A stretch of 39,929 bases of DNA from Candidatus Hermodarchaeota archaeon. Lineage in GTDB: Archaea; Asgardarchaeota; Lokiarchaeia; Sigyniarchaeales; SOKP01. A program made the translations under genes and the position numbers. The notes beneath the pieces are model-generated. The model had not been told where the DNA came from. It saw only the letters and a program-made list of their open reading frames with translations, and did not search any database. This document shows positions 2,871 through 38,090 of the stretch, in pieces. Positions within the stretch are counted from its first letter, which is position 1, and every line of letters begins with the position of its first letter. The stretch covers positions 1-39,929 of the forward strand of contig JBHLLO010000003.1 of assembly GCA_048885535.1 (NCBI GenBank). Direction: 5' to 3'.

Positions 2871-3488
2871 ATGGTTCAGTTAAATAAAATTATTGAACAA
2901 TTAAAAAGGATGCGAAATATAGTTCGCATAACGGTAGTGGGAGATGGAGCAGTAGGAAAAACTACATTAGTCCAAGCTATTCTTAGATTAACTCAAGATT
3001 GTGCTGATGATCCCCCCATTACAAATTTTATGGAAACAAAAAAGATAAAACGAACTCCCTTTATGGAAATAGAATCTTGGAATTATAAAGATCTATTAAT
3101 TCAGTGTTATGATTTGGCAGGGCAACGGAGTCCAGGGGCTCATCCTTTAGATATTTTGCAAAACCAAGTTATAAGCTCAATTGATATATTTATCTTTGTT
3201 TTCTCAGTTGATAGATACGAATCTTTTGAAAATCTCAACAATTGGATAACATTAATGCATTTAAATAATTCATATACAAATAAAAATAGTGGATTAATTC
3301 TTGTTGGAAATAAAATTGATCTAAATTATAATGTGTCAAAAGAATTTATTCAATCAATAGTGGGAGAAACTAAATATTTTCAATCTTATATTGAAACGAG
3401 CGCAACAAAAGGAATAGGTATCGATGAACTATTGGATGAGATTGCCAACACTGGAAAAAATCTTCTTGATGCAAACATGGGAGGCTAG
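2871..3488 (+). CDS. Ras/Rab-like small GTPase (divergent)
   Basis: G1 GDGAVGKT, G2 Thr (RTPF), G3 DLAGQ, G4 GNKID, G5 ETSAT; no C-terminal Cys. Confidence 0.9.
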   Translation: MVQLNKIIEQLKRMRNIVRITVVGDGAVGKTTLVQAILRLTQDCADDPPITNFMETKKIKRTPFMEIESWNYKDLLIQCYDLAGQRSPGAHPLDILQNQVISSIDIFIFVFSVDRYESFENLNNWITLMHLNNSYTNKNSGLILVGNKIDLNYNVSKEFIQSIVGETKYFQSYIETSATKGIGIDELLDEIANTGKNLLDANMGG

Positions 3489-3543: not shown

Positions 3544-5763
3544 ATGACTATAGTAAATTGCAAGCTCTGTAATGAGAAGATTAGTTTTGATCTCCAAGAT
3601 AAAGGTTCATATTTGCATAAAGTTGAATCTGGGAATCCAATGATAGGAAAACTCTTCACTGTACGCGTAAGTCATCTGACTAGTAGAGGATTATTCCATA
3701 TTAATGTAGTTGTTATTGATGAAAAAGGAGAATATCGAGCTCATAAAGATTATTATGAAGAAAAAGAACTAAAACAGAAGATTTCCGATAAATGGGAACT
3801 GCTATTACGCCAAATTCCTATAGAAATTAGGTCTTACTTAACTTTAGCAAATGATAATGAAAAAAGAATCCTATCTTCAATAGCGGACCCATTGAATAAG
3901 CCTGCTAGTGAATTATATTATAATTTAGCAAGATTTAAACTCGAAAATCCATTTAGCCAATTATTGAATTTTTTAGCCGTGAAGTGGGGCTTTATAATTG
4001 GAAAAGGAAAAATCCTTTTACAGGAGAAATATCTTTCCAATTCTTGGAGTTATCCCATATATCTACGCTTACAAGCAAGATTTTCCCCAAAACCAGAACT
4101 GGTTGAGACTATAAAAAATTTGGATTTTAGTTCATACCCAATTTTGATGCAATTAGAAGGAGCAATTGCAAAAGCTGAAATATTTCTTCGTTTAAGTGAA
4201 TATAATTTATTAGAGGAATTATATAATGATTCGCTAAAAAAATGGGGTAATGAAACATCTATTGAAATGAAAACGGGATGGATGCTAATTCAAGGTTATT
4301 ACGGATTTGGTTTTTATTTTCTAGGAAATATTAATAAAGCAATAAAATTGATAGAGCCAGTTTTTAATTTTGGGCAGATAATTGAGAATCGTGAAATCAT
4401 TAATGTTGTTGGGAACTTTTATGCGGCAGTTCTTCAATCCAGTGGGGAGTTAGAAAAAACTTTGCAGACCTATCACATTGTTTTGGATGTGAGCGAAGAT
4501 ATGGGAGATGAGAGAACAAAAGCAGTAATTTCATCAAATATGTCTGTCGTTGAATCAAAACAAGGGTTATATGATCAAGCCCTAGAGCGTCAGAGAGCTA
4601 TTTTGGAATTACCTATTGTTAAGGATGAATACTTCTTAAAGATGTCTCTTCAGGCTATTATAGCTGAAACTCTTTTCATTGCCGAGCGTTATGATGAATC
4701 AATAGAATTGTGTAAAACACTGATTTTTGACAGAAGTATGCCTACAAATTATAAGTTCGATACGCTTTCTACTCTTAAGAAGATTGCTGGTAAAACAGAT
4801 TCTCCTGAATTGTTAGAATTTGTCAGAAATCATTTGATAGATGATAGAGAATTTTTAGAATCTCCAGTAAATAAAATTTTCAATTTTGATTTACAGGCTA
4901 TTAGTACTAAGCTGCAGGGAAGCTGGCAAGAATTAATTGATTACTTGAAAAAAGAACGCGAAATAATGTTTAGTTACAATTTAATAGAAGATGCTAGTGA
5001 CATAGAAATTAGGCTTGCTGAAGGTTATTTTAAATTATATCAGCACTTTGAAAGACTTGAAGATTTGAATCATGCATATAGTCATTTAGATCTCGCTAAA
5101 ATGATTGCATTCGAACGACAGAATTATTTAGACTTATGCAGATTAGAGATTCTCAAAGGATTACTTGCGAGTGAAAGTAAAGTAATAGATCAAGCAGAAT
5201 TAAATTTTAAAAATGCATTAAAAATAGCACAGGAGCATAACTTACAAAATTTAGAAGATCAAATTGTTGAGCATCTTGATCAGCTAGAGAAAGGAATAAT
5301 AGAAAAATCAGCAAGTTCATTTTTACGAAAATTATTTAATAGGTTATCATTCAGAAAAGCTGAAGAGTTAAAACCCAAGAAGAAGGGTGTTGTCTATTCA
5401 ATATGTATAGCAACTCAAGATTCGACTTGGAAATTGGTATTACAAAATGAAAAGATGGGAACTCCTGAATATACATATTATTTATTAGGTTTTCGTGATT
5501 TATGGGAAGAGTTAAGGAGAAATAATCTTAAGCAACAATTAAATTATTTTAATGTTGATAAAGGAGCAGTTTTGGTTGAACATTCTCCTAATTTTCAATT
5601 AATTGCTATATGCGATCAAGTAGACTATTTAACAAGATTAGCGATTCAAAATATTCTACCCTCATTGGAAGATTTTTCTTTTAAGTATATTCCTGAAGAA
5701 TTATCTGAAAAGGTATTAGAACTTATAAATAATAATATCACAAAATTCATTAAAGTTGAATAG
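3544..5763 (+). CDS. Multidomain protein: N-terminal CxxC/H/H putative Zn-binding domain, TPR-like helical repeats, C-terminal longin-like domain
   Basis: CKLC...SH...FHINVVVID; TPR-like units (YFLGNINKAIKLI, QSSGELEKTLQTY, KQGLYDQALE, AERYDESIELC, DQAELNFKNALKIA); the last ~125 aa show a beta-beta-alpha-beta-beta-beta-alpha-alpha pattern. Confidence 0.7.
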   Translation: MTIVNCKLCNEKISFDLQDKGSYLHKVESGNPMIGKLFTVRVSHLTSRGLFHINVVVIDEKGEYRAHKDYYEEKELKQKISDKWELLLRQIPIEIRSYLTLANDNEKRILSSIADPLNKPASELYYNLARFKLENPFSQLLNFLAVKWGFIIGKGKILLQEKYLSNSWSYPIYLRLQARFSPKPELVETIKNLDFSSYPILMQLEGAIAKAEIFLRLSEYNLLEELYNDSLKKWGNETSIEMKTGWMLIQGYYGFGFYFLGNINKAIKLIEPVFNFGQIIENREIINVVGNFYAAVLQSSGELEKTLQTYHIVLDVSEDMGDERTKAVISSNMSVVESKQGLYDQALERQRAILELPIVKDEYFLKMSLQAIIAETLFIAERYDESIELCKTLIFDRSMPTNYKFDTLSTLKKIAGKTDSPELLEFVRNHLIDDREFLESPVNKIFNFDLQAISTKLQGSWQELIDYLKKEREIMFSYNLIEDASDIEIRLAEGYFKLYQHFERLEDLNHAYSHLDLAKMIAFERQNYLDLCRLEILKGLLASESKVIDQAELNFKNALKIAQEHNLQNLEDQIVEHLDQLEKGIIEKSASSFLRKLFNRLSFRKAEELKPKKKGVVYSICIATQDSTWKLVLQNEKMGTPEYTYYLLGFRDLWEELRRNNLKQQLNYFNVDKGAVLVEHSPNFQLIAICDQVDYLTRLAIQNILPSLEDFSFKYIPEELSEKVLELINNNITKFIKVE

Positions 5764-11423: not shown

Positions 11424-12566
11424 TTGCCTAAATATATTTTTGCGGCTATTGAAGAGTTGAAAGAAAAGAAAAAAAAAGAAGGTGTAGATTTAATATCTCT
11501 AGGGATAGGAGATCCTGATTTGCCCACTCCAGATCTGATTATTAATGAATTAATTCAACAGGTACAAATAGCTGAAAATCAGAATTATCCCTCAAGTATG
11601 GGAGAACAGGATTTTAGAGATGCTGTTGCAAGATGGAATGAAGTAAGATATTCTATAAATTTGGATTCTGCAACTGAAGTATCCCATGTGCTGGGAGGTA
11701 AAGAAGGAGTAGCTAATATTGCTAGAGCGTTTATCAATCCAGAAGATTTAGTTTTATGCCCAAATCCTGGATATCCTGTTTATGAAAATGGAGCAACAAA
11801 GTTATGTGATGGAAAACCATACTTGCTTCCCTTAAAAAAAGAAAATGATTTTTTACCTAATATTGATTCCATTGATACAAAGATCCTGAAAAAGGCTAAA
11901 TTGATTTACTTAAATTATCCTAATAATCCTACGGGAGCAATTGCTCCACAAGATTTTTTGAAAAAAATGGTGGATTACGCTGAAGATTATAATTTTATCA
12001 TAATTCATGACAATCCATATTCTGAATTCACTTTTAATGATTATATAGCACCGTCAATATTACAATTTAGTTTAGAGCATGTAGAAATCAATAGTGCTTC
12101 TAAGATGTTCAATATGACTGGTTTTCGATGTGGCTGGATTGCTGGAAATGCAAAGATTATTGAAGGTCTAAGGAGGGTAAAATCTCAAATTGATTCAGGG
12201 GGTCCCATCTTTATTCAAAAAGCAGTAATCAAGGCACTTAATGAATACAAATCAAATAAGAAACCAGAGATTGTCGCAAAAACTATGAAGACGTATGAAG
12301 AAAGGCGAGATGTTTTAGTAAATGGTCTTAATAAGATGGGTTGGAAAACAGATAAACCAAAGGCTACTTTCTACATTTGGACTCAAATCCCTAAGGAAGA
12401 ACATAGTAGTATGGAATTTGTAAAAAAGTTGATTAATGTGGGTGTAATTGTTACACCTGGCATTGGATTTGGAAAATGTGGAGAGGGATTTATTAGATTT
12501 GCATTAACTCAACCTCTTGAGAGAATAAAAGAAGCTTTAGAAAGGATTGAAAAAGTAATAAATTAA
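11424..12566 (+). CDS. dapL: PLP-dependent class I/II aminotransferase, LL-diaminopimelate aminotransferase-like
   Basis: LISLGIGDPDLPTP, GGKEG, LNYPNNPTG, DNPYSE, SASKMFNMTGFR (PLP Lys), TPGIGFG..GEGFIRFAL. Likely start is ATT 11391. Substrate is not proven. Confidence 0.8.
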   Translation: MPKYIFAAIEELKEKKKKEGVDLISLGIGDPDLPTPDLIINELIQQVQIAENQNYPSSMGEQDFRDAVARWNEVRYSINLDSATEVSHVLGGKEGVANIARAFINPEDLVLCPNPGYPVYENGATKLCDGKPYLLPLKKENDFLPNIDSIDTKILKKAKLIYLNYPNNPTGAIAPQDFLKKMVDYAEDYNFIIIHDNPYSEFTFNDYIAPSILQFSLEHVEINSASKMFNMTGFRCGWIAGNAKIIEGLRRVKSQIDSGGPIFIQKAVIKALNEYKSNKKPEIVAKTMKTYEERRDVLVNGLNKMGWKTDKPKATFYIWTQIPKEEHSSMEFVKKLINVGVIVTPGIGFGKCGEGFIRFALTQPLERIKEALERIEKVIN

Positions 12567-13197: not shown

Positions 13198-14517
13198 ATG
13201 GAAAAGAGGATTGTTTTAGTTGGAGCAGGTAGTACATCTTTTGGACCATCTACATTAACAGATTTATTCCATAGTAAAGTATTGACAGGATCTACTATAG
13301 TATTGCATGATATCAATAAAGAACATTTAGAAATTATTTATAGATTAATATATGCTGAAAATGAGAATCTATACCATAAGTTTGAAATTGAATATACAAC
13401 AGATAGATCTAAAGCTTTTAAAGACGCAGATTTTATAATTAACTCTATAGAAGTTGGAGACCGATTTAAATTATGGATGGAAGATTACCAAATTCCAAGA
13501 AAATACGGATCAACACAGATTTTAGGTGAATGTGGCGGACCTGGAGGCACAATGCATGCATTTCGAATAATACCTCCAATTATAGAAATAGTAAAAGATG
13601 CTGAAAAAATTTGCCCAAATGCCTTTTTTATAAATTACTCAAATCCTTTAGCCCGAATTTGTTTAGCAATTAAGAGAGCTACCAATAGTCTGAAGTTCAT
13701 TGGACTCTGTCATCAAATAGGATTCTTAAACAAACATTTGCCTAAAATATTCAACAAACCCGTGGAGAAATTTAAGATAAAGGTAGGAGGTTTAAACCAT
13801 TTCGCTTTTTTATTGAATCTGGAGGAAATTGAAACTGGAAAGGACCTTATGCAAGAGTTCAATTTGAATGCATTTAATTATTTTAAACAAAACGAAGACC
13901 GATTTGAATTTTCAAATTTAACTTTTGAAGTGTATAGAAGATTTGGGTACTTTCCCTATGTGGGAGATAACCATTTAGGTGAATATCTTCAATTTGGTGA
14001 AGAGTTTACCAAAAGAGAAGATATGATTGATTGGATTAACCATACTGAATATCACAGAAGGATTGTTTTCGAATATTTTAAGTGGAGATTTAAAAAACTA
14101 AAGGAGGGTAGATTCCCGAAAAAAGGGATACTTCCTAAAATTCCTTCAGATGAGAGAGCAATTCCAATAATAGAAGAAATGCTTCAAAATGAAAGCAGTT
14201 ATGAAGCAGCTGTAAATATTCCCAATGAAAATATTATCGAAAATTTACCTAAAGATTTAATTTTAGAATGTTCAGCGATTGTAAATAAAAATGGAGTTCA
14301 AGGAATAAAAATAGGGAAATTGGCAAGACAAATTGCTGCACTTTTAAATATAGAGGCAATAATCCAAGATCTATGCGTTGAAGCCATATTGAAAAAATCT
14401 AGAGATTTAGCAATAACATGTTTAGCAATAGATCCTAATGTAGGCAATTTTGAAATGGCAGAGAAGATTTTTAATGAAATGAAAAGTAAGTATAATTTTT
14501 ACGATTATTTTAAATAA
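13198..14517 (+). CDS. Glycoside hydrolase family 4 (NAD+/Mn2+-dependent alpha-glycosidase)
   Basis: VGAGS, GECGGPGG, INYSNP, GLCH, GGLNH, VNIPN...NLP, DP motifs. Confidence 0.92.
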   Translation: MEKRIVLVGAGSTSFGPSTLTDLFHSKVLTGSTIVLHDINKEHLEIIYRLIYAENENLYHKFEIEYTTDRSKAFKDADFIINSIEVGDRFKLWMEDYQIPRKYGSTQILGECGGPGGTMHAFRIIPPIIEIVKDAEKICPNAFFINYSNPLARICLAIKRATNSLKFIGLCHQIGFLNKHLPKIFNKPVEKFKIKVGGLNHFAFLLNLEEIETGKDLMQEFNLNAFNYFKQNEDRFEFSNLTFEVYRRFGYFPYVGDNHLGEYLQFGEEFTKREDMIDWINHTEYHRRIVFEYFKWRFKKLKEGRFPKKGILPKIPSDERAIPIIEEMLQNESSYEAAVNIPNENIIENLPKDLILECSAIVNKNGVQGIKIGKLARQIAALLNIEAIIQDLCVEAILKKSRDLAITCLAIDPNVGNFEMAEKIFNEMKSKYNFYDYFK

Positions 14518-14613: not shown

Positions 14614-17600
14614 ATGGAATCCAAAAAATCTAATGGGAGAATTGAACGGGCTACTACTTTTCTTACAAAATTGTGGTGGTTTTTTGCTTTCTTAATTGGG
14701 ATTCCAATAACTATTTCTACTATTAGCTTCTATGTTCTCAACTTTATTATTAGAGATATTTATATCTCCATCGGTCTTTCAGTGATTGTCTATTTATTTT
14801 CAATCTTCTTTTTTTACAAAAGTTTTGATCAATATAGAAATAAACCTTTCTTTTTTAATAACATAAATAATCTCAACGCCAGGATTCATACTTTTTTTAT
14901 AATTAGTAGTATTGCTTTGATTGTAACCCCAATATTTGTTTTTATTGCTCCTGAAGGATATTATTTTGAATTTCTTCCTTTAATTTCTTATTGTATTTTA
15001 TATAACATCATTTATTATTATTTTTTTTATAAACCTATTGAAGATTTTGATATCTCTAAATGGAGATTCAAAAGTGGTGTCAGTTTTAAATCATCATTAA
15101 AAGAATTGCATAATCTAGTAGTCATCTTGAATTATATAATTCATATTTTTTTCTTAACCTACACCTATTATACGAAGTTATCTTGGTTATTTGCTTTAGT
15201 ATCAAATTTAGTTTTTTACATATACACTATACTATCTACAAGATATTTAAGAAAGAAATTCAAAATAACTACCAAAAATGTTGAATCTATTCCTAATTAT
15301 TTAATCAAATTTAAGAAAAAGTTTACTCTATCTATTGTTAGCCTTTGCTTTGTGCTTTTACTTCAATTGCCATTTGATTTTTATCTTGTAAATGTCTTAT
15401 CTGGTGCTATTTATACCTATTTTGATTATATCATGATCAGCTTTGTATCAATGATATTCTTGTTTTTATATTTCAAGCTAAGGTTATACATTTCAATATA
15501 TTACAAGAAGGAATCCTCTAAGTTAATTAATAACGGATTAAACGATGCACGTAAAGATTCTTCGGAGTATCTAATAAAATATCAAAAATGGAATATGATA
15601 ATATCCTTACTTTTTAGCATTTTTATCCTTTTATTTTCATTAGGGATTAATTTGCCCATAATAATCATAATTATATTCCCAGGCATTATGATTGCTACTT
15701 ATTATGAGCAAAAAGCTAACTTTTGTCCAAAGAAATATAGTCGTTACATTTTTTTATTTACTAGTATTGTCATTTTAAGTTCATTAATATTTCTAATAAT
15801 TTTTTCTCTTGAACTTCAAATAATCATATTTCTAATAAGCATTTATTTGGATTTACAAATTTTTGCTTATTATGAGTATTTTGATAAAAATAAACTTATT
15901 TTTTCTCAACATTTAATAGCTTTTACATGCTTTTTAGTAATTACTTATCTATTTTATCCATTCATTTCGATAGTCTATTTAGAATTTCCAATTGACCTTT
16001 TATTATTAAATTTTATAAACCTTCTCATCTATGCCTTATTAGTAAGCTTAGCTCTATTAGGTACATTCTATTATTTATATTTCCGCTATTTTAGGAAGAA
16101 CAAATGGGCGCGTTTCAGTTTAATCTTAAACATTGTCATAATCTTAGTTGAGATTCTTTCATATACTCTTATAAATCTATATACCCTTTTTTCCACAGAA
16201 TTTAATATATTTATTATTTCTATTTTAATAAGCACTGTATTTTTACCATTAATATTTGATGTATTTATCGGATTTAACTATATTCTTGGAATATCTTCGA
16301 AAAAAAAAGCTTTAAAACAATTATACTACTCAAGTTGGATTTTAGTTTTAACAATTTTTAGTTTTGTTTTTTATATTTTCCTAAACAATTATATCTTCTT
16401 AATAGCCGATTTATTATATCTCTCTATTTTTTCGCAAATTTTAATTAAATTTGGAGAGAAAATTGAGCAAGTAAGTACTAAAACTTACAAAAAATTTGTG
16501 AATTTTAACTCGATTTTTATCCTAGTAGAGCTTTATTGCCTAATATTCTCAATTATGCTTGAAACTCTTACTTTTATCAATATCTTTGGCAATGTCTTGC
16601 TTTCTTCCTATATTTCATTGATTTCTATTGCGATTTTAATTAATATATTTTTAAGGAGGATGATTTCGAAAGTAGCAATAAAGGTTATTAATCTGGTTAG
16701 TCTGTTGTTTTCCACAGGCTTAATTTTTTATTATTTGTATACCTACACCCTTGAATCTTATTTTATTCTTATTATTCCAAGTTTGTTTTCATGCCTTTTC
16801 TTCTATATCTTCATTTTTTATCTAAAGTTATTAAGGTATGAAATATTACCAAAAGTTCTTTTCTTGATAAATTCAATTATAGTTTCTATCTCTTTATCTC
16901 TTATACCATCGTTTTTGGCATTAGAGAGAATTAAATTAGGTCTTACCATAGATTTTTTCACAGTGTTTAACTTGACTCTTTATATTATTATGGGAATATT
17001 ATTTATTATTAGCACTTTCTCACAACGATTAAAAATTAGAGAGGGAAGGAAAAGATTTACATTATTTATGCAAATTCTTGGACTTTTCGTTATAGCGGGA
17101 ACTACAGTGTTCTATTATTCAAATCTAATTTTAGGAACTACTTTTTTTGGAATAATTCCCATTCCTTTAATCGCAACATCTACATTTCTTTTCATCCCTT
17201 TTATATTACTATATAAATTTCAATTTTTTAAAGTCAAGACTAGTAAGATCCTCATCTTTTTAAACTACCTCTTCCTCTGGGGGACGATAATATCAATCCC
17301 AATCGTTTTTTGTATAGAATTCATAAGATTAGGCAATTATATTGAAATTTATATGATGGTAACGTTAATAATTATATTTCTTTATGGTTTCTTAAAATCT
17401 CTGACCCCCATATCAGAAGTCTTCAAAATAAAAGAGTATATTAATTATACAATACGAGTAATGCAAATAGGCATATGGTTTAGTATAGCGACGATGGTTT
17501 CACTAATTATACCTCTTTTCTTTTTATTCCAACAATATTATTGGTTAAATCTATTAATAATAAGCTGTGCATTAATACTTTTTTTCATGTTGAATATTGT

Positions 17601-20600
17601 AAATCTATTTCAATTAGAGAGTTTTAAGCAAAAAGTTTTTGAAAATAAAAGAAGCAAATTAGATTTTTATAAAATTTACAAAATTTTTGAATATCATAAA
17701 AATATCATTTACTTTGGATTAGTTCTTTCAATATCTCTCTTATTTTATTCGTTCTTCCAAGCTTTCAATCTTATTTATATAATTTTCCAGTCAACTGACA
17801 TATTATTAACGAGTTGCTTTAATCTAGCAATCTTCTTGATCATTACCATATTACTGTTGCATTTTACCAGTAAGATACTTAGCATAGAATTTGTTAAAAC
17901 AAGAGATATAGCTGAATTATTAATTTGGTTATGCATAAAATTCAATATTTTGTTGTTGTTCTACTTATTTCCCTTTCAAATTTCAGTTTCTAATAGAACT
18001 TTTCTAATACTTCTAGCTTTTGCCATTCAAAGCCCAATTACCATTTATTATATCAACAAACACATGATGTTGTTAGAAAGTACTGTATCGTTTATGAAAA
18101 AAGTTGTAGGATTGTTTTTCTTTATATCTATTCTTGGTCTTTTTGCGGAATATATTTGGAATGTTAACATTAGTATTTCATATTTTACTGAAAACATCTT
18201 AATTTTTATTGGCTTTCTTTTTTGTCTAATTTATCTATTTTCTAATCATTATATTATACATTTTAGTGAATTTATCCAAAAGAGAAATGTATTTAGAATA
18301 TATAGATTGTATATAATTTCCTTTATGTTATTAGGTCTCTTTCTCCTAATGAATATGCAATTTAATTTAATCTCTTTATTTGCTATATTGGTTATACTTT
18401 TTCGAAAACGGAATAGAAATGCAATCTGGCATTTACTTAATTATGTAGTAATTAGTTTTCTTAGTTTAATTGAAATAAACCTCTTTATAATAAAATATAG
18501 CTTTCTCTCTATTACTTATATTCATCCTGGATTTTACACATGGATATATTTTATATCATTTATTTCGATTTTATTTATTTCAATTATTTTTAACTTCAAG
18601 AAAATAAATGTCCTTGAGGAATTATTATTAGACTTTTTAATTCCTTCTTTAATTTTTATGACAATTTTTATTTTCTTTCCGGTTCCTATTTTCTATAATA
18701 TAACAATTTCTATTACTATTCTACTTTTTTTAATAAGTTTCTTCTTTTATCGTAAAAAAGATGAAATATATATTTGGTTTATACGTCCATGCGCCATTTT
18801 ATTTCTATTTAACCTGATAAGTATTGGTTCTTATTTCGCAATATTCAGTATTCCCCTTTATCGTGAATTCAATCTGATATTAAGCTCTACCCTAACTTTT
18901 AGTGTTATAGGATTTTGTTTCGCTTTATTTTATCACAATTTGGAAAAGAAATTTAAAAGTAAAATAATATCACTTATTCTCATTTTAAGTGTCATTAGTT
19001 CTTTCATATTTTCGTACCTCTTTATAGAAATTACGTTTATATTAAATTTTATTTTTCCATGGTTGATTGCTGGAAATATCGCAATAATTTTATCATATTT
19101 ATCTATTGGAATTTATCAGTGGAGAATTTCATGGGCAATCTGGAAGTCAGGATATTGGCTCTGGATATTTGTTCCAATTCTTAATTACCTATTAATAGCT
19201 CAATCATTTGCAGGAATCGATATCTACACAAATGCTCTAAATTTCTTTGGTTTAAATATTTATGGTTCATATTTGATTACACTTGTCATTTGTTTATTGT
19301 TATCACTACCCTTCTGGTATACTTGGATTAAAGACCATTTTAATATAGTTTTATTTATCTTATGGGGTTTTAGTTTGTTTTTAATATTTTGGTTTAGTCA
19401 AAATGCCTTTTTTGGGTTTGATATTTTGATTTATTTATCATTTTTGGGAATTTCTATAATATTTCTTATGCCAATTTTCTATAGATTAGGCTTTTGGAAA
19501 ATTCTATCAGTGTTATGGCTAATATTCACTTCACTATTAACCATTTTCATAACATTCATTTTATATGGAGTTGGTTTCTTTTTGAACCTAATCATATCCT
19601 TAGATTTAGTCTTAGTTGGATTCCTTTTCATAATATTCTCCTTTTTTCCAAATTTGAAAGCAATGAAAAACATAATATTAATAATTGCTTACTCTATAGT
19701 CATAATTGGACTTTTTTCGATTATCTTAATCTTAATGATTTCAATAACCTATAATGTTCCAATTTCGATCAATATTTCTTTCATAATAGTTGCATTTAGT
19801 TTGTTCACTTCCCGTATATTGAAATTAAACAGGAAATTATTCAATTTCTTAATATCTATGATTTTGACTGTTAACTTTTCACTTTTAACATTCTTTAGTT
19901 TTCTTATGATCCCGAATTTCGAATTTTTCGCTCTATTTTTGGCTATAAGCGTCTGTGGAGGATCTCTTCTTGTATTTAATCGATATCGAATGTTTTCTCC
20001 CATTAAAATGATTATTCCCTTATCGATCTTATCTATAGGAATCTCCTTAACAATCTCTACTTTGATATATATTTTTCTACCATATTCTTTTTTTCTTATA
20101 TCTACTGCGTTTGTTTCTATAATATTATTGATAAATTACCCTTTTCTTAAATATTTCCGTCACATTCTATGGTACTCTATTCCTGTGCCTTTTTGTTTGT
20201 TTATTATGCACTTTTTATCATTATTGGAACTGTTCCAATCAATATTTAATTTAATCTTAATCGGTTTGATTTTATATACTTCAATATTTCAAATTATTAC
20301 AAATTCAATTTACGGAAATATTAAAAGTATAAATCTTTTAGCTTTTGTTCTAAATTCTACTTACATTTCAGTATTTATAGCAATTCTTAGCCCTTTATTT
20401 ATATTCTATAAGATTCTTGAATTTTTAATAATCTGGTCCATTTTAATCTTGTTATGTATTAAATATATTGAGAAGAAAGGGCAAGAACTTTTCAAAAGCA
20501 AGACAATCGTTATAATAGTGAAAGTAAGTAGTTGTATCGCATTACTCCTCTACTTTGAAATTTCACTACTAACTACAATTATTGTCAATGATTTTATAAT

Positions 20601-23088
20601 AACTGAGTTCACAAGCACTATTTTAACATTTTTTGGAATTTTATTTTTAGGATCACTATTAGATATTATTCTTATTAAGAAAGTCAGCAGCAGATTAATA
20701 TTTTTAATTAATGTGAGTTGTTACATTTTAATTTCAATTTACCTATTTATATTTCTAAATCGCTTTTTAGCTATTGATGTTCAATTTATTTTCTTAAATC
20801 TGATAGTATTATTGGTAATGCAATTTTATACCATAAAAATCATATTTTCTCTTCTAAAGCAATTAGATCGTTATGATAACGAAAAGTTAATTTCATCACG
20901 AAAAATTGTACAAACGATTCTATTGAATATAATTTTCTTTATCATTAGCTTATTTGGATCCTCTTACTTCACATCAATACTCCTAAATGTATCATCATTA
21001 CTTAGTGGATCCCCGGCTATTCTATTTTTCTTAATGATTTTTAGTTTTTTAATGTTTAACTTGAATCAAATAATTAATGTTAAATTTAAAGATAAAGTGT
21101 TAATTGTATATTATGTAATATTTATGGTAAGTTTTCTTTCTTTCTTTACCTCGTATATGATTAGGTTCAACCTTATTAATTTATTACACCTTAGTTTAAT
21201 AGCGCTTATCATTACTACTTTATTATCTTACTTCATTTACTTACTAAAAAAAATATATATTGAGAAATTAGGGACTGAGATTGTTGAGAAAATTTATTCA
21301 TTATTACAATTTTTTCTTTACCTAGAAATTTCGTTAATAATTTATAGCCAACTTTCCGTTTATTTGAATATATTCGAAGGCATTCTAATATCTCAATTAA
21401 TCCTATGTTTGATTACATTAATCGAAATATATTTTATTAAGAAATTAAAGATTAAATACGGTTTTATGCTTCACACTATTAGCTACTTCAATATAAGCTG
21501 GGCTCTATTTTTTGTAGTATTTCAGTTTACTCACAATTATTTTGGTTTAAATATTGTTCTCTTTACATTTATGCAGTTTTATACTAACCATTCATATTTT
21601 ATAACTAGATCTAAATTTAATCCAAACAAAAGACCAGATTTTGAGAATTGGAAATTAATAAGAAAAAAATTGGTTGGATCCTTTTTCTATTTTACGTTAT
21701 TATCATATATTGTCCAATATTTAATTCTACTTATCCCTGATATTCAGTTAGTCATTTTAATTTCGAGTATATTAATTCATGGATTAATGTATCTTGATAA
21801 ATATGTATTTAAATTTTTAGCTAATTTGTCGAAATATTTAATCTTGTTATCCATTGTCTTAATAGCAAGTGTGTCTATTTTGTATTCTCTGGGTTGGATT
21901 TTAACTATTTCAATACAAATCATTCCTTTAACAATACTCATAGTTTTACTTGAAATAACTTATTTTATAAGGTTATTACACCTTTGGAATATTTTAAAAA
22001 GCGAATTTTCCAAAAATCGAAATTCAATTATTCTCTTATTCTATTTGAATTTTGTAATTTGGCCTCTTTTTTATTTATCCTTGGAAACTATTATTATTCT
22101 GAATATATTGTTGATATGTATTATTATATTGATCATAATTTCTCTACTTGATATCCGGATAAAAGCAATTAAACAGAATTTAAGAATAAGGATCTTTAAA
22201 TTTGCGTATGCTATTTTTGGGATAATATTATCAATAGATATATTTACATTATTAGAGTATATAATTCAACCTAATTTTCCATTAAATTTTTCTGTAGCAG
22301 GTTTAATATTTATCATTGTAATTGGATTTTTAGTAAGACCTTTTAAAAAACATAGAGCTATTTCTTTTTTCTATTGGTTATTAGTATATCTATTTATTAG
22401 CCTAATTATATTTTATGCCTATTTGAATATTTGGAGTTTTACTATACTGATATTCGGAGTATTATTATATCCATTTATTTTCATGCTTGAGGAGTTGAGA
22501 GAATTATTTAATCATTTCTTAGATTATCTTCGTAAGTTGATATCAAAAATTAAGTATATAATAATAACTGGTTATAAAAAATTGATTACGTTTCTTAGAA
22601 CACACTTTAAGGTAATTCGAATTTTTATTTGTTTAATTATTGGAATAATGACAGGATTTATCTTTTCTGAGTTTGTTTTAGCTATTTTAGACCTCTATCA
22701 TTCAATACTATTAGCTCTAGCTACTTTTGGAATTACTTATGCTTTTACAGATTATTTATGGTACCATTTCTATATTAAAAACCTTGAGGATTTAAAACAA
22801 ATCTTTAGACACAAGTTAAAAATATTTATCATTATTTGGATAAGCTTCTCTTCTTTTATTTTTGCATTAATATTACCTTATGTTAATTCAGTGCTTTATC
22901 AACTATTTCTTATTCTAATACCACTTTGGGGATTAGGGTCAATCTTAATCTGGGTTGTAAATAGGAAAGAAGCAAAAGAAAAAATTTCGGTGAAAACCCG
23001 ATTTTCTATAACATTATCTACAATAGTTTTATTTATTATATGGATAGCTATTATCTTGATTTGGTTCTTCTTTGAAGTTCGTGTCTAA
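14614..23088 (+). CDS. Giant polytopic membrane protein (2824 aa), function unknown
   Basis: Uninterrupted 8.5-kb ORF; about 85-90 hydrophobic segments by manual count, separated by short loops that are often K/R-rich; internal repeats. Confidence 0.88.
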   Translation: MESKKSNGRIERATTFLTKLWWFFAFLIGIPITISTISFYVLNFIIRDIYISIGLSVIVYLFSIFFFYKSFDQYRNKPFFFNNINNLNARIHTFFIISSIALIVTPIFVFIAPEGYYFEFLPLISYCILYNIIYYYFFYKPIEDFDISKWRFKSGVSFKSSLKELHNLVVILNYIIHIFFLTYTYYTKLSWLFALVSNLVFYIYTILSTRYLRKKFKITTKNVESIPNYLIKFKKKFTLSIVSLCFVLLLQLPFDFYLVNVLSGAIYTYFDYIMISFVSMIFLFLYFKLRLYISIYYKKESSKLINNGLNDARKDSSEYLIKYQKWNMIISLLFSIFILLFSLGINLPIIIIIIFPGIMIATYYEQKANFCPKKYSRYIFLFTSIVILSSLIFLIIFSLELQIIIFLISIYLDLQIFAYYEYFDKNKLIFSQHLIAFTCFLVITYLFYPFISIVYLEFPIDLLLLNFINLLIYALLVSLALLGTFYYLYFRYFRKNKWARFSLILNIVIILVEILSYTLINLYTLFSTEFNIFIISILISTVFLPLIFDVFIGFNYILGISSKKKALKQLYYSSWILVLTIFSFVFYIFLNNYIFLIADLLYLSIFSQILIKFGEKIEQVSTKTYKKFVNFNSIFILVELYCLIFSIMLETLTFINIFGNVLLSSYISLISIAILINIFLRRMISKVAIKVINLVSLLFSTGLIFYYLYTYTLESYFILIIPSLFSCLFFYIFIFYLKLLRYEILPKVLFLINSIIVSISLSLIPSFLALERIKLGLTIDFFTVFNLTLYIIMGILFIISTFSQRLKIREGRKRFTLFMQILGLFVIAGTTVFYYSNLILGTTFFGIIPIPLIATSTFLFIPFILLYKFQFFKVKTSKILIFLNYLFLWGTIISIPIVFCIEFIRLGNYIEIYMMVTLIIIFLYGFLKSLTPISEVFKIKEYINYTIRVMQIGIWFSIATMVSLIIPLFFLFQQYYWLNLLIISCALILFFMLNIVNLFQLESFKQKVFENKRSKLDFYKIYKIFEYHKNIIYFGLVLSISLLFYSFFQAFNLIYIIFQSTDILLTSCFNLAIFLIITILLLHFTSKILSIEFVKTRDIAELLIWLCIKFNILLLFYLFPFQISVSNRTFLILLAFAIQSPITIYYINKHMMLLESTVSFMKKVVGLFFFISILGLFAEYIWNVNISISYFTENILIFIGFLFCLIYLFSNHYIIHFSEFIQKRNVFRIYRLYIISFMLLGLFLLMNMQFNLISLFAILVILFRKRNRNAIWHLLNYVVISFLSLIEINLFIIKYSFLSITYIHPGFYTWIYFISFISILFISIIFNFKKINVLEELLLDFLIPSLIFMTIFIFFPVPIFYNITISITILLFLISFFFYRKKDEIYIWFIRPCAILFLFNLISIGSYFAIFSIPLYREFNLILSSTLTFSVIGFCFALFYHNLEKKFKSKIISLILILSVISSFIFSYLFIEITFILNFIFPWLIAGNIAIILSYLSIGIYQWRISWAIWKSGYWLWIFVPILNYLLIAQSFAGIDIYTNALNFFGLNIYGSYLITLVICLLLSLPFWYTWIKDHFNIVLFILWGFSLFLIFWFSQNAFFGFDILIYLSFLGISIIFLMPIFYRLGFWKILSVLWLIFTSLLTIFITFILYGVGFFLNLIISLDLVLVGFLFIIFSFFPNLKAMKNIILIIAYSIVIIGLFSIILILMISITYNVPISINISFIIVAFSLFTSRILKLNRKLFNFLISMILTVNFSLLTFFSFLMIPNFEFFALFLAISVCGGSLLVFNRYRMFSPIKMIIPLSILSIGISLTISTLIYIFLPYSFFLISTAFVSIILLINYPFLKYFRHILWYSIPVPFCLFIMHFLSLLELFQSIFNLILIGLILYTSIFQIITNSIYGNIKSINLLAFVLNSTYISVFIAILSPLFIFYKILEFLIIWSILILLCIKYIEKKGQELFKSKTIVIIVKVSSCIALLLYFEISLLTTIIVNDFIITEFTSTILTFFGILFLGSLLDIILIKKVSSRLIFLINVSCYILISIYLFIFLNRFLAIDVQFIFLNLIVLLVMQFYTIKIIFSLLKQLDRYDNEKLISSRKIVQTILLNIIFFIISLFGSSYFTSILLNVSSLLSGSPAILFFLMIFSFLMFNLNQIINVKFKDKVLIVYYVIFMVSFLSFFTSYMIRFNLINLLHLSLIALIITTLLSYFIYLLKKIYIEKLGTEIVEKIYSLLQFFLYLEISLIIYSQLSVYLNIFEGILISQLILCLITLIEIYFIKKLKIKYGFMLHTISYFNISWALFFVVFQFTHNYFGLNIVLFTFMQFYTNHSYFITRSKFNPNKRPDFENWKLIRKKLVGSFFYFTLLSYIVQYLILLIPDIQLVILISSILIHGLMYLDKYVFKFLANLSKYLILLSIVLIASVSILYSLGWILTISIQIIPLTILIVLLEITYFIRLLHLWNILKSEFSKNRNSIILLFYLNFVIWPLFYLSLETIIILNILLICIIILIIISLLDIRIKAIKQNLRIRIFKFAYAIFGIILSIDIFTLLEYIIQPNFPLNFSVAGLIFIIVIGFLVRPFKKHRAISFFYWLLVYLFISLIIFYAYLNIWSFTILIFGVLLYPFIFMLEELRELFNHFLDYLRKLISKIKYIIITGYKKLITFLRTHFKVIRIFICLIIGIMTGFIFSEFVLAILDLYHSILLALATFGITYAFTDYLWYHFYIKNLEDLKQIFRHKLKIFIIIWISFSSFIFALILPYVNSVLYQLFLILIPLWGLGSILIWVVNRKEAKEKISVKTRFSITLSTIVLFIIWIAIILIWFFFEVRV

Positions 23089-23454: not shown

Positions 23455-24000
23455 ATGGGAGAGCAACAAAATAACACGAAAATTAATGTGAGAGATTGGA
23501 TTATTCTTAGTACCACTATGATAGGGGCTGTTTTAACAATTCTAGCTTTAATATGGCAATTTAAACCTACTTATGGAATTATAACTGTGACTTTTCTTTT
23601 ATTACTTTCATTTATATTATTTGTGAATTCTGTTTCAGCGAATTCAAAAGCAAATTTTGAGATAAAGGCAAAGAAAATGCCAGAAAAACAAATCTTCAGA
23701 TTTGTTACTTTTGCTGAATATACTTTTGGTCTCGGTTTTACTCTTGTAATAACTGGATTTTCTATACTTGGGTATAAATATTTTTTAGATTTCGCAGGAC
23801 GGACTTTAATAGCATTAATTCTGCCAACTAGTTTTATAATCGTTACCTGGTTAATGATCCTTATCTATAATACTATTAACTATTCTGGAAGACCATTTAA
23901 AACTATTAGAAGTTTAAAGAGAAATTTATGGATAATATTGGAATTAATATGTCTTGTTTCTATAGGATTAGATTTCTTTGAATTTATATTAATTCCATAA
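23455..24000 (+). CDS. Hypothetical membrane protein (about 5 TM)
   Basis: Five hydrophobic stretches; followed by a poly-T tract. Confidence 0.75.
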   Translation: MGEQQNNTKINVRDWIILSTTMIGAVLTILALIWQFKPTYGIITVTFLLLLSFILFVNSVSANSKANFEIKAKKMPEKQIFRFVTFAEYTFGLGFTLVITGFSILGYKYFLDFAGRTLIALILPTSFIIVTWLMILIYNTINYSGRPFKTIRSLKRNLWIILELICLVSIGLDFFEFILIP

Positions 24001-35126: not shown

Positions 35127-38090
35127 TTATTGAAATACTAGAATTAATCCTACTGAAGATTCATATAGGATCTCGTTATTAACAATTAAAATCCATTTGT
35201 AGAAGATAATAATATTTCCTTTTGATGTGTTTAAGAATCCTGTTAAAGTGATCCCTTGTCCAAAATAGAGAGTTGTATCTACAACTGTGAAATTCGTATA
35301 AGTATATGGATCTACTATATAAGTTGTATTTTCAATAGGATACATATTAGGAGGTAATATTAAACTAAAATTGACATTATTGGTTGTTGAGGTGTAGACT
35401 GTTAAATTTACCATGACGTTTAATCCAGGAGCTGAAAAATTTGTATCTAAATTTTGTAAGTTTATAGAAAATCTTGCAGGATCATTAGGGAATGTTATTG
35501 ATGATTCTATCTCAAATTCATAAGATAGTGATATATTTGAAGGTGGAACTTCACCTGAAATATTAAGATTATTATATGCAATCTCAACATTACTTCCATA
35601 ACCTACTTTTCGAGTAAACGCATCAACAAATCCAACTAATTTTAGTTGTTGTAGATCTCCTGCTGTACTATAAGTTGGTATATAATAATAAATTGAATCT
35701 CCAAGAGGATATAACAGTATATTGCCACTTCTAGCACCGGAAATTAAAGTTATTTCTTGGGTTGCTTCGGAGAGATAGGTTTCATTAGCTGATTTTGGAC
35801 CAATTAAAGTTTTATCAGAATTTCTTGTCGCATAGAATATTGCTTCTCCAAAATGGTTTCCATGCCTGACAACATACATCCCGGCAAGCACTATTGCTGA
35901 ACGTCCTTTATATTCAACTAGATCTAATCCAACATATTCAATACCCTCACCTAAATCAGTTTCAATATAAAACAAATCTCCTTTAATTGGCCTTTCATGA
36001 AAATCATCTTCTCTTCTCCATGTTGTAGGGTTTTGGACATGATATATATAATTAGCTTCTAATTGTAATTCGAATAGATCTTCTGGATATCTCATTTGTT
36101 CTCTCAACCAGAGAGGAGCGTCTTGCCAATCATATTTAGCAATAGAAGTATATATTCTCCAAAGAGCATAAGTAGGATCATTGCTAGTGTTTAAACTGGG
36201 ATTTCTATAAAATTCTAATTCCCCTGTTTTAACGTCTATTAAACACACACCTAAAAATCTTAATATTGGAAACTTTGCATAGGACCCAATATTGATATGA
36301 GTATATATTGAAACAGCATAATACATCTTTCCTTTTTTAATATCAAAAACTAAATATGGATCAGTATCAATCTTAAGATTTGGAAATAAGGTATTTCCAA
36401 CTCGTGTCTTAACATTTCGATTAATCAAATATTCATGTAATTCTTGGGTTGAATAAGCTAACAAACCTAGATTTAGTGTTTTCCAGAAACCTTCTAGACC
36501 AGTAAGTACTCCATCAGGGGCACCATTATAAAGAAATTCGTTATTTGGGATCCCTTCAGCCCATTCGGTTCCTAGCAAAATATCTGAATCGTAAGCCCCT
36601 AAGGATCCTTCTTCGTAATAACCTTGAGTTCTTTCTAAGAATTTTCTACTTTCACTTTCACCGAAAAATATAGGGTAGTTCTCCGATATATTGAATATTA
36701 ACGAGACATTAACTAAATTACCAGAAAATGTATCCATTGCTAAGAAACCTTCAACATGATCATATAACTCTGTATTTGTCTGCACAGGATCTCCTGTTAT
36801 TTGAGAAAATCTAATAGTTTTAGGAGCTACCCAATATTCACTGGTATGGTTCGTGTAAGGATTTCTAATGTAAACTATATCTGAATCTGCTAAACCTTCA
36901 AAAGTAGATCCTATTGAAGCGGCCAAATATTGAACAGCAAAATCTTGATCGAACTGTCTAATATTTGATCTAATAGTAGCATCGTCAGTTATAGGTGATT
37001 CGGTGAAATTTTCAATTGTACGTTCCTTAAACATATTTAGTCCAGCACAATCTCTTGTCCAATCAATTTCTCTGCGAATCTTTTTATTCCACTCCTGTTC
37101 AATCCATACATCAGTATTATTTAGGCTAAGTGCTGGTCCAATACTAATCAATAAAGGTACAATAATAAAAATTATGATTACTGCACCTATTACGATTATT
37201 TTCCTCCTCATTTGTCTTGGAAGAATGTAATTCTTAGAATTTTTACGATATAAGAGCCTTCCATATATATAAATAAGAATACCTAAAACATTTAAGACTA
37301 TGAAGGCAAATATTACGGACCACATTTGAATGAGGTTTATCCCATTTAATGCCTGCGTAGGTAGAGAAAAGAACCATATCCCAAAAAGCAAACCACCTAT
37401 TATAAGTGCGTTTGCTGTTATATAAAAATCATTTCTCCTAAGATAAAGATTTTTTGCTATATTTAAAATTATTCTAAAAATAAGTATGCAAATTGTAAAA
37501 ACAATAATTGGAAATATTAGATTTCCATAAATGAAGATGCTTATAAAATCCTTACTGTTTTCATCCAAAATTACCCTAAATGCATCAATTATAATATTAG
37601 GACTCAGTTGGATTTCCCCTTTTTCAATTAGATAAGCTGTCCAAGCGAAAGATTGACCATTAATATTGAGGGTAAAACCTAATAAATAGAAAATAATAAA
37701 ACCAACAGTCCACCAAAAAACAAGTGATTTAATATAAGAGGGTTTTCCAAATCTTAAACGTGTACCAATTATCGTTAATAGGATCCTATCTGGAGGGATA
37801 CTCATAATAATACATCCTATCAAGGCTCCAATTAAAGAAGTCCAATTAAAAAAGAAATTTGAAGACCAAAAATTTATAAAATGCACGTCTAAGAAATTAG
37901 TATGTGCTTTTGATTGATAAAGCTGAATCTGAAGATTAATTGGTCCAATCCAAGAGGGCCATAACCAGAAAATTATTAAAATAATTAAAATTCCAACTAT
38001 GATTAAAGAGCCTAATAATAGCTTTTTTAATCTAGGTTTTTTTTGGAATGGGTTATACTTAAACCTTGAAGACTTAATTTTTTCATTCAT
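35127..38090 (-). CDS. UPF0182-family membrane protein
   Basis: N-terminal multi-TM region, EIDWTR..AGL, YDHVEG, PIFFGE, DTDPYLV, MRYPEDLFELQ, GNILLYP; beta-rich C-terminal tail. Confidence 0.8.
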   Translation of the reverse strand: MNEKIKSSRFKYNPFQKKPRLKKLLLGSLIIVGILIILIIFWLWPSWIGPINLQIQLYQSKAHTNFLDVHFINFWSSNFFFNWTSLIGALIGCIIMSIPPDRILLTIIGTRLRFGKPSYIKSLVFWWTVGFIIFYLLGFTLNINGQSFAWTAYLIEKGEIQLSPNIIIDAFRVILDENSKDFISIFIYGNLIFPIIVFTICILIFRIILNIAKNLYLRRNDFYITANALIIGGLLFGIWFFSLPTQALNGINLIQMWSVIFAFIVLNVLGILIYIYGRLLYRKNSKNYILPRQMRRKIIVIGAVIIIFIIVPLLISIGPALSLNNTDVWIEQEWNKKIRREIDWTRDCAGLNMFKERTIENFTESPITDDATIRSNIRQFDQDFAVQYLAASIGSTFEGLADSDIVYIRNPYTNHTSEYWVAPKTIRFSQITGDPVQTNTELYDHVEGFLAMDTFSGNLVNVSLIFNISENYPIFFGESESRKFLERTQGYYEEGSLGAYDSDILLGTEWAEGIPNNEFLYNGAPDGVLTGLEGFWKTLNLGLLAYSTQELHEYLINRNVKTRVGNTLFPNLKIDTDPYLVFDIKKGKMYYAVSIYTHINIGSYAKFPILRFLGVCLIDVKTGELEFYRNPSLNTSNDPTYALWRIYTSIAKYDWQDAPLWLREQMRYPEDLFELQLEANYIYHVQNPTTWRREDDFHERPIKGDLFYIETDLGEGIEYVGLDLVEYKGRSAIVLAGMYVVRHGNHFGEAIFYATRNSDKTLIGPKSANETYLSEATQEITLISGARSGNILLYPLGDSIYYYIPTYSTAGDLQQLKLVGFVDAFTRKVGYGSNVEIAYNNLNISGEVPPSNISLSYEFEIESSITFPNDPARFSINLQNLDTNFSAPGLNVMVNLTVYTSTTNNVNFSLILPPNMYPIENTTYIVDPYTYTNFTVVDTTLYFGQGITLTGFLNTSKGNIIIFYKWILIVNNEILYESSVGLILVFQ

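Follow-up and report, generated by a model that had tools for sequence, protein, structure and literature searches.

What does an archaeon do with a single protein chain of 2824 residues that is predicted to consist almost wholly of membrane-spanning helices? The question is raised by one gene in a 39,929-nucleotide stretch of DNA (the window) from a Candidatus Hermodarchaeota archaeon (GTDB lineage Archaea; Asgardarchaeota; Lokiarchaeia; Sigyniarchaeales; SOKP01; assembly GCA_048885535.1, contig JBHLLO010000003.1, positions 1 to 39,929 of the forward strand). The gene is real, conserved, present in single copy and under purifying selection. On profile comparisons and structural models, its product is a membrane-embedded repeat protein, in which predicted four-helix units of ∼125 residues stand in tandem. 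Between two arms of variable length, N-terminal and C-terminal, lies a core that keeps its length, ∼750 residues with 26 helices.

A preliminary description of the window had reported one 8.5-kb open reading frame (ORF) for a protein of 2824 amino acids (aa), and that frame was found exactly in place: 2824 codons run without interruption from ATG to stop at 14614-23088 (+). The gene is poorer in G+C than its flanks (24.6% vs ∼30%). From its own base composition a stop would be expected every ∼14 codons, the probability of 2824 stop-free codons by chance is ∼1e-93, and each of the five remaining frames of 14614-23088 holds 150-350 stops. Isoleucine (18.4%), leucine (16.5%) and phenylalanine (12.6%) dominate the product; I, L, F and V together make up 52% of it, and K, R, D and E 11%. 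Such a composition could be taken to mean that the frame is a chance or decaying one in AT-rich DNA, hydrophobic merely through its T-rich codons. The low G+C content and T-rich coding strand would fit that account, as would the ∼61 hydrophobic windows that remain when the protein is shuffled. Against it stand the improbability of the open frame, together with the conservation described below.

Eighty-nine homologs, 1570-3754 aa in length, were retrieved from 5.8 billion proteins by a word-seeded search. Identities are 77%, ∼61% and ∼40% in the nearest groups, and none of the homologs carries a precomputed Pfam domain. The named homologs are labelled as hypothetical proteins of Promethearchaeota or Lokiarchaeota, with a few assigned to Thor- or Sigynarchaeota and one to a bacterium, in agreement with the Lokiarchaeia-type host that the preliminary description had assumed. 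The bacterial entry (P0064, 1892 aa, 36% identity) carries the source label Nanopelagicaceae bacterium; since all other named homologs are labelled Asgard, this label looks like a binning or labelling error and not like a bacterial homolog. Across the homologs, the query and its identical database copy (90 proteins), there are 2.4-3.1 hydrophobic segments per 100 aa and no segment-free stretch is longer than 138 aa.

Locus comparisons covered 21 loci, namely that of the window and 20 fetched from other genomes. All 20 fetched loci carry intact frames, of 2541-4908 aa with 70-115 hydrophobic segments. The gene of one relative, with a G+C content of 53.7%, nevertheless encodes 71 segments in 2978 aa, and AT-rich DNA therefore does not account for the hydrophobicity. 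A comparison of nonsynonymous (dN) and synonymous (dS) substitution rates, proposed in the preliminary description, gave purifying selection against the 77%-identical ortholog (dN 0.125, dS 0.704, dN/dS 0.18); three neighbouring genes have dN/dS values of 0.09-0.11. The archaeon's own genome (91.6% complete) holds one copy. With intact orthologs, selection, 508 well-conserved alignment columns, the same architecture at more than twice the G+C content and a loop-charge alternation far above that of shuffled sequences, a chance or decaying frame is contradicted by the conservation data and is excluded for practical purposes. The sequence occurs in five DNA sequencing runs (sediment metagenomes from two studies, one of them possibly the origin of the sequence) and no RNA run is listed, which has no bearing on expression.

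The family is taxonomically narrow. A single-query search with the core (aa 1300-1900) found matches in 115 of 400 genomes of the phylum, and a profile of 60 core sequences found them in 118. The core-profile matches fell in 101 of 134 genomes of family f1, 1 of 1 of f2, 12 of 14 of f3 and 2 of 4 of f4. These four families are assigned to the window's own order, to which the distribution is confined save for one marginal match (18 bits, E 7.7e-4) among the 246 genomes of the other 29 families. Most positive genomes have one match each; G138, by contrast, carries the gene twice, as open frames that run to 4920 and 3151 aa. A HMMER search of 1.84 billion cluster representatives with the core profile returned 65 proteins at E≤1e-3 (63 at E≤1e-10), and all 65 are long family members or their fragments. 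By sequence, then, the family stands alone at profile sensitivity. The homologs that the preliminary description had called for thus exist, and its proposed distribution check yielded family members only, essentially within one order. The f3 members, among them L048:4112-15934, L049:3979-18705 and L050:3856-16746, have 3940-4908 aa and 103-115 hydrophobic segments, and three lie in closed single-contig genomes. A Pfam search of two such giants, of 4908 and 4296 aa, gave no match.

How many helices does the chain contain, and do they cross the membrane? A Kyte-Doolittle count (19-residue window, greedy, non-overlapping) found 82, 79 and 69 hydrophobic segments at thresholds of 1.6, 1.8 and 2.0. 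Shuffles of the same protein (n=200) are also rich in segments (61.5 ± 3.1, maximum 71), so the count alone is weak evidence; composition accounts for much of it, though not for all. The lysine and arginine content of the loops is stronger, and decisive for the topology. Consecutive loops alternate between high and low K+R content at 73 of 81 inner loops; in shuffled sequences (n=200) the fraction that does so averages 0.52 and never exceeds 0.69. The same alternation was followed on AlphaFold2 (AF2) models of two stretches, in which spans were taken from the modelled helices, kinked helices were merged and three helices of 4-7 residues were excluded. Alternate loops contain 25 vs 3 K+R between the 16 helices of aa 563-1097 and 32 vs 1 between the 26 helices of aa 1216-1958, or 57 vs 4 for 42 helices in 1278 aa. 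Alternation of this strength argues that each modelled helix crosses the membrane. The helices are 20-36 residues long and hydrophobic. Short loops free of K and R lie on one side (outer-side loops have 2-14 aa) and K/R-rich loops lie on the opposite side, which is the positive-inside pattern.

Extrapolated from 42 spans in 1278 aa, the full chain would have ∼93 spans, and we put the number of transmembrane (TM) helices at an estimated 80-93. The preliminary description, which had counted ∼89 hydrophobic segments by eye and arranged them as hairpins with short loops alternating with K/R-rich ones, was accurate on both points. Its figure falls between the hydropathy values (79-82) and the model extrapolation, and neither method gives far fewer helices. 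It had also seen no recognisable soluble domain, and this holds: the longest segment-free stretch has 94 aa, Pfam gave no family for the 2824-aa protein at E≤1, and NCBIfam gave no match at E≤0.1.

The repeats are not visible to simple comparison. BLASTP of the protein against itself revealed no internal repeats at E≤1e-3, and they emerged only when profiles were compared with profiles. When 200-aa windows were compared with hhalign, 20 of 325 pairs scored at least 30; none of 143 reversed controls did so, their highest score being 26.8. Related stretches recur at offsets of ∼128-131 aa within aa 694-1016, of ∼247-259 aa within aa 1948-2568 and of ∼1070-1082 aa between more distant stretches (906-1171 with 1988-2235; 1334-1492 with 2402-2568). 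Among the alignments, 694-796 vs 822-927 has a probability of 98.9% (E 1e-17), 1948-2100 vs 2207-2351 also 98.9% (E 3e-17), and 919-1094 vs 2001-2165 95%. An iterated hidden Markov model (HMM) of the unit first picked up 576-679, 697-810 and 826-939, then in later rounds 2485-2568, with no match in a reversed database. Over 16 rounds this HMM shrank from 127 to 88 positions and never recovered more than four copies in the giant protein.

The AF2 model of aa 563-1097 gives the repeats a physical form, as its secondary structure comprises four successive sets of four long helices. In the units at 697-810 and 826-939, the third helix is kinked at a conserved proline (P765 and P896, respectively). 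After it, on the K/R-free side, comes a turn with the conserved motif E..LG..D/E. Comparison of the 21 loci shows where the family varies. The core is 743-815 aa long throughout, while the N flank ranges from 1078 to 1886 aa and the C flank from 733 to 2279 aa. Flank lengths cluster in steps of ∼125-140 aa, which is the size of a unit, and arm length therefore appears to evolve by unit gain and loss. Stand-alone relatives of two units (aa 694-949) were sought among proteins of 140-448 aa, and none was found at E≤1e-3.

The core is the most conserved part. In a MAFFT alignment of the 89 proteins, 508 query columns reach 70% or more in both occupancy and identity, and these are densest at aa 1320-1900. 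Among 60 core sequences (alignment A1; residue numbers are those of the A1 fragment plus 1215), F1411, W1510, P1521, N1524, P1566, W1584, F1599, P1620, W1628, W1635, F1645 and P1679 are invariant, and over the core as a whole Trp, Phe, Pro, Asn and Gly are frequent among the invariant residues. A ∼750-aa core with invariant W1510, P1521, N1524, W1628, W1635 and P1679 and TM-repeat arms on either side marks a member of the family, and the window protein has all of these. The core's one longer loop on the K/R-free side spans aa 1524-1550; D1536, G1546, G1551 and S1552 are conserved in this region. Charged residues are conserved in 33 columns (D, E, K, R or H), seven of which lie between hydrophobic flanks: E639, K1109, D2017, E2255, E2447, D2542 and H2696. 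Two further positions, E2238 and a consensus Glu at 2200, come near the same criterion. Of these nine, seven belong to the C arm; the core has none. The conserved core residues are instead aromatic, Pro, Gly or small polar, without a conserved charge in a hydrophobic context, which suggests a role in packing.

The N terminus forms a module of its own. At 4 of the 21 loci, aa ∼1-310 are encoded by a separate upstream ORF of 312-314 aa with 33-50% identity (L034:5112-6050, L036:5081-6022 and L046:5094-6038 on the + strand; L035:13495-14439 on the − strand). At these split loci the stop of the small ORF overlaps the start of the main gene, which then encodes 2541-2718 aa, and a GGAG-like motif lies upstream. 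The chain can thus be split naturally after residue 310, in a two-gene form, and the split gene explains why aa 1-300 are covered in just 57% of homologs. Two of three members checked (P0084 and P0086) have a sub-threshold zinc ribbon (Pfam E 2.5e-5 to 3e-4) at aa 168-190, within an N-terminal loop of ∼120 aa; the window protein has no such motif there.

Does any known protein resemble this one? The preliminary description had recommended AlphaFold fragments followed by Foldseek, and this was done with the whole core model (m868c952dbd33, aa 1216-1958; predicted local distance difference test (pLDDT) 83.7, predicted template-modelling score (pTM) 0.59) and the whole N-arm model (md4f7a98c4562, aa 563-1097; pLDDT 87.0, pTM 0.69). 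Both queries were thus whole models of more than 400 residues. Neither had a Foldseek match in the PDB at E≤1e-3. The top rows are soluble alpha-solenoids and designed tandem-repeat proteins, at E 0.09-1 and template-modelling scores (TM-scores) of 0.1-0.2. VIA-align compared both models with 48,161 representative chains. The core reached a Z of at most 8.8, over 54 aligned residues, and the N arm one of at most 10.2, over 102 residues, the latter with a designed up-down four-helix bundle. All VIA-align matches are local hairpins or bundles and fall below ∼13, the level of common arrangements for helical models with this tool. A PDB sequence search with the core profile returned one row, at a chance-level E of 1.1, and Pfam searches of each member of A1 (60) and of A2 (37) gave no consistent family. 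The expectation that no characterised relative exists is therefore borne out by Pfam, NCBIfam, the 1.84-billion-protein profile search and the PDB sequence search. A search of the ESM Atlas with the core reached at best 0.89, in unnamed clusters and with a recognition value below the tool's mark, and is kept as a lead only. Among clusters bearing Pfam domains, this protein-language-model search placed one with DUF2339 nearest, with the domain on 13% of members and a score of 0.81, a result that often arises by chance and is too low to be more than a lead. A two-copy complex prediction for a cut-out TM fragment of the core (aa 1380-1800) scored 0.00 against a mark of 0.42 and is evidence neither way.

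The comparison with Piezo is instructive for its design. Pfam-A holds Piezo models, and no sequence relation emerged: Pfam gave no family at E≤1 for the protein, and Piezo is not among the weak matches of A1 and A2 members. A cap, a beam and long loops are features of Piezo; the Asgard protein is without large soluble parts, and its longest segment-free stretch leaves no cap-sized loop. The conserved module is central between arms in the Asgard family and C-terminal in Piezo. PIEZO1 has 38 TMs; 36 of them build a strongly curved blade of nine four-TM repeats, while the final pair trimerises into the pore (PMC12377734). Both are very large polytopic proteins whose bulk is predicted or known to be tandem four-TM units (of four helices and ∼125 aa in the Asgard case), and in both, repeat arms that vary more are coupled to a non-repeat module that is better conserved. 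The Asgard family has two to three times as many helices (80-115 vs 38), and is archaeal and confined to one order. We take the shared tandem four-TM units as a likeness of design, which is no evidence of homology.

Other systems share single traits. Alpha-solenoids (TPR, HEAT and designed proteins) likewise consist of many tandem antiparallel helix units and change length by unit gain and loss, but they are soluble and have units of two or three short helices, in contrast to the long hydrophobic spans modelled here. Membership among TPR-like alpha-solenoids was rejected, as Foldseek gave E 0.09 or worse with TM-scores of 0.1-0.2 and Pfam gave no TPR. The antiporter-like subunits of complex I and Mrp (NuoL/M/N, MrpA/D) have long TM rows, intramembrane conserved charges and broken helices, and their VIA-align matches are local and weak (Z 7.7-7.8, a common-arrangement level). 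These subunits are 14-TM modules with two inverted five-helix repeats (Pfam name Proton_antipo_M). The Asgard period is four helices and no Pfam match was obtained, so this membership was rejected as well; no partner subunits lie nearby. DUF2339 (PF10101) comprises bacterial proteins of unknown function with many TM helices and few loops; these are far smaller than the giant family, and membership was discarded on the lack of any Pfam match at E≤1 for the protein or for A1 and A2 members.

What, then, might such a protein do? We tentatively favour, as one possibility and well short of conviction, an intramembrane structural element that stiffens or shapes the cell membrane or senses its bending. 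The protein has no soluble parts, its core is conserved in a way that suggests packing, its arms change by units, and nothing links it to a transporter or enzyme. A structural role fits these points together best, and the best, if weak, Foldseek rows are alpha-solenoid repeat proteins. In such an element, the packed helices would form a long plate or ribbon within the bilayer. By the principle of the Piezo blade, the footprint of an array of four-helix units could impose curvature or report it. The conserved core would act as a hub that fixes the geometry or contacts partners, and longer or shorter arms would adjust how large the footprint is. A far bolder version sees here the first intramembrane solenoid: two arms of ∼10 four-helix units each, radiating from the hub and imposing or sensing curvature, would shape the thin protrusions and wall-less membranes of this Asgard order as a counterpart to the cytoskeleton, by a prokaryotic Piezo-blade principle that is independent or very anciently related, with arm length tuned by unit gain and loss from 2500 to 4900 residues. 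Taken as a whole, that version is rather improbable.

Several observations weigh against a structural element. Piezo is not among the 50 matches listed in any of four fold searches and there is no Pfam match to it; the neighbouring genes concern sugar and amino-acid metabolism and transport, not the cytoskeleton or the envelope; and some nearly complete f1 genomes have no copy (none of 2 with one in genus g7, at 96% completeness, and 2 of 10 with one in genus g11), which indicates that the gene is dispensable in some lineages. The conserved acids in a hydrophobic context in the C arm (D2017, E2238, E2255, E2447, D2542), some of them at equivalent positions of repeats, would fit ion binding or transfer better. 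They lead to the main alternative, possible though on the whole unlikely, in which the protein conducts ions or solutes, either as a huge and perhaps mechanosensitive channel with a pore lined by the core or as a chain of ion-translocating modules like those of complex I and Mrp. The hydrophobic-context residues as a set (including E639, K1109 and H2696) would suit such a machine, as would charged pairs that stand ∼250 aa apart like the repeat offset, N-arm units in which a Pro-kinked helix precedes a conserved Glu, the invariant outer core loop with its beta hairpin and the weak local matches to complex I and Mrp subunits. Yet no Pfam, NCBIfam or PDB sequence relation to channels or transporters was found, a Z under 13 reflects a common arrangement of helical models, the most conserved part of the protein has no conserved charge in a hydrophobic context, and eighty helices far exceed what any known conduction path needs. 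Another alternative concerns lipids: as a scramblase, a lipid-ordering platform or a reservoir, the protein would organise archaeal ether lipids on its huge hydrophobic surface. That surface is enormous and lipid-facing, invariant Trp, Tyr and Phe are numerous close to the ends of helices, at the level of the head groups, and no soluble domain is present. This proposal is purely inferential, finds no relation to known scramblase or flippase families in Pfam, NCBIfam or the profile search and no lipid-synthesis genes nearby, and we give it a slim chance.

The remaining alternative draws on the genes next door, and would make the protein a membrane platform or enzyme for assembling surface glycans or the envelope. 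Upstream on the same strand lie, in order, a sugar transporter of the major facilitator superfamily (MFS), an unknown 338-aa protein, an aminotransferase and a GH4 glycosidase; the last two stand directly upstream at 15 and 12 of the 21 loci, respectively. Downstream follow the 181-aa membrane protein, a TrmB regulator, a GyrI-like protein and DNA polymerase B. The MFS transporter, the TrmB regulator and conserved acidic residues on the outer side of the repeat units would agree with a glycan role. The linkage, however, is limited to one genome family and is missing from the five loci of distant relatives (L045, L048-L051), which share no neighbours. An unrelated DNA polymerase B is co-located at 8 of the 21 loci, so background synteny is high, and no GT-C, Wzy or MOP-like family matched in Pfam. 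Synteny was rejected as a functional clue on these grounds, namely that the aminotransferase and GH4 are kept in one genome family only and that the polymerase is nearly as frequent. The neighbour pattern is read as inherited gene order and not as operon partnership, and a tie to the sugar genes has little to recommend it. Roles outside this list of alternatives keep the rest of the probability.

Some further genes of the loci are recorded for completeness, and coordinates are collected in the table. The 181-aa hydrophobic protein has sub-threshold similarity to DUF443 (E 0.003) and to a tandem five-TM protein (E 0.004), and may be a small partner of the giant. At a single locus, that of a distant relative (L048:2607-3842), a flotillin-like SPFH/Band_7 protein of 411 aa lies directly upstream on the same strand. 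Elsewhere in the window, a Ras/Arf-like small GTPase of 205 aa (2871-3488), of a kind typical of Asgard genomes, is followed by a 739-aa protein (3544-5763) with a sub-threshold TPR_12 match (28.5 bits against a cut-off of 30.1, E 1.8e-6). On the − strand, 35127-38090 encodes an uncharacterised protein of 987 aa that matches UPF0182 (E 5e-14).

Table. Features of the giant gene and its neighbours (window coordinates; loci counted among the 21 compared)
Feature	Coordinates	Strand	Basis or occurrence
Whole ORF P0001, giant polytopic membrane protein, 2824 aa, estimated ∼80-93 TM helices	14614..23088	+	ORF, hydropathy, models, 89 homologs, single copy
N-terminal module, aa 1-310	14614..15543	+	separate 312-314-aa gene in some relatives
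N-arm repeat region, aa 563-1097, four consecutive predicted four-helix units (16 TM helices)	16300..17904	+	AF2 model, K+R alternation
Repeat unit, aa 576-679	16339..16650	+	iterated HMM, E 8e-16 at iteration 4
Repeat unit, aa 697-810, Pro-kinked third helix (P765), E..LG...D turn	16702..17043	+	hhalign, HMM, motif
Repeat unit, aa 826-939, Pro kink (P896), E..LG...E turn	17089..17430	+	hhalign, HMM, motif
Conserved core, aa 1216-1958, 26 predicted TM helices, 743-815 aa in 21 loci	18259..20487	+	alignment A1, AF2 model
Conserved core loop on K/R-free (outer) side, aa 1524-1550, two short helices and small beta hairpin	19183..19263	+	AF2 model
C-arm repeat region, aa 1948-2568, offsets ∼250 aa internally and ∼1075 aa to N arm	20455..22317	+	hhalign
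Conserved K/R-rich loop before last helix, aa 2786-2797	22969..23004	+	E2786, S2792, K2794, R2796 each in 80-84 of 84 homologs
Class I/II aminotransferase	11424-12566	+	Pfam; upstream of giant gene, 15/21 loci
GH4 glycosidase	13198-14517	+	Pfam; upstream of giant gene, 12/21 loci
181-aa hydrophobic membrane protein	23455..24000	+	downstream, 7/21 loci
Neighbour DNA polymerase B			8/21 loci
Neighbour Liv-type ATP-binding cassette (ABC) transporter (another genus)			7/21 loci

The family is undescribed: neither Pfam nor NCBIfam holds a model of it, none of its relatives has a solved structure, and no account of it or of giant polytopic Asgard proteins was found in the literature, although supplementary tables may list members. 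We know of no characterised protein with anywhere near 80-115 membrane-spanning helices in one chain, and rate the architecture, a repeat protein built inside the bilayer, as a categorically new class. A whole family with this extreme helix count, conserved and under selection, is found in one order of the Asgard archaea, the prokaryotes closest to eukaryotes. Cultured members of the group are described as bearing thin membrane protrusions (PMC7015854; 10.1101/2025.11.30.690169). Closed genomes carry the gene (three are single contigs), which opens it to localisation by cryo-ET and to membrane proteomics, and the protein should serve as a useful natural model for the insertion and folding of very long helical membrane proteins, which makes it of high interest to specialists in membrane proteins and Asgard cell biology. 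Whichever role it proves to have, as scaffold, sensor, conductor or lipid organiser, the protein would represent a membrane machine of a new kind.

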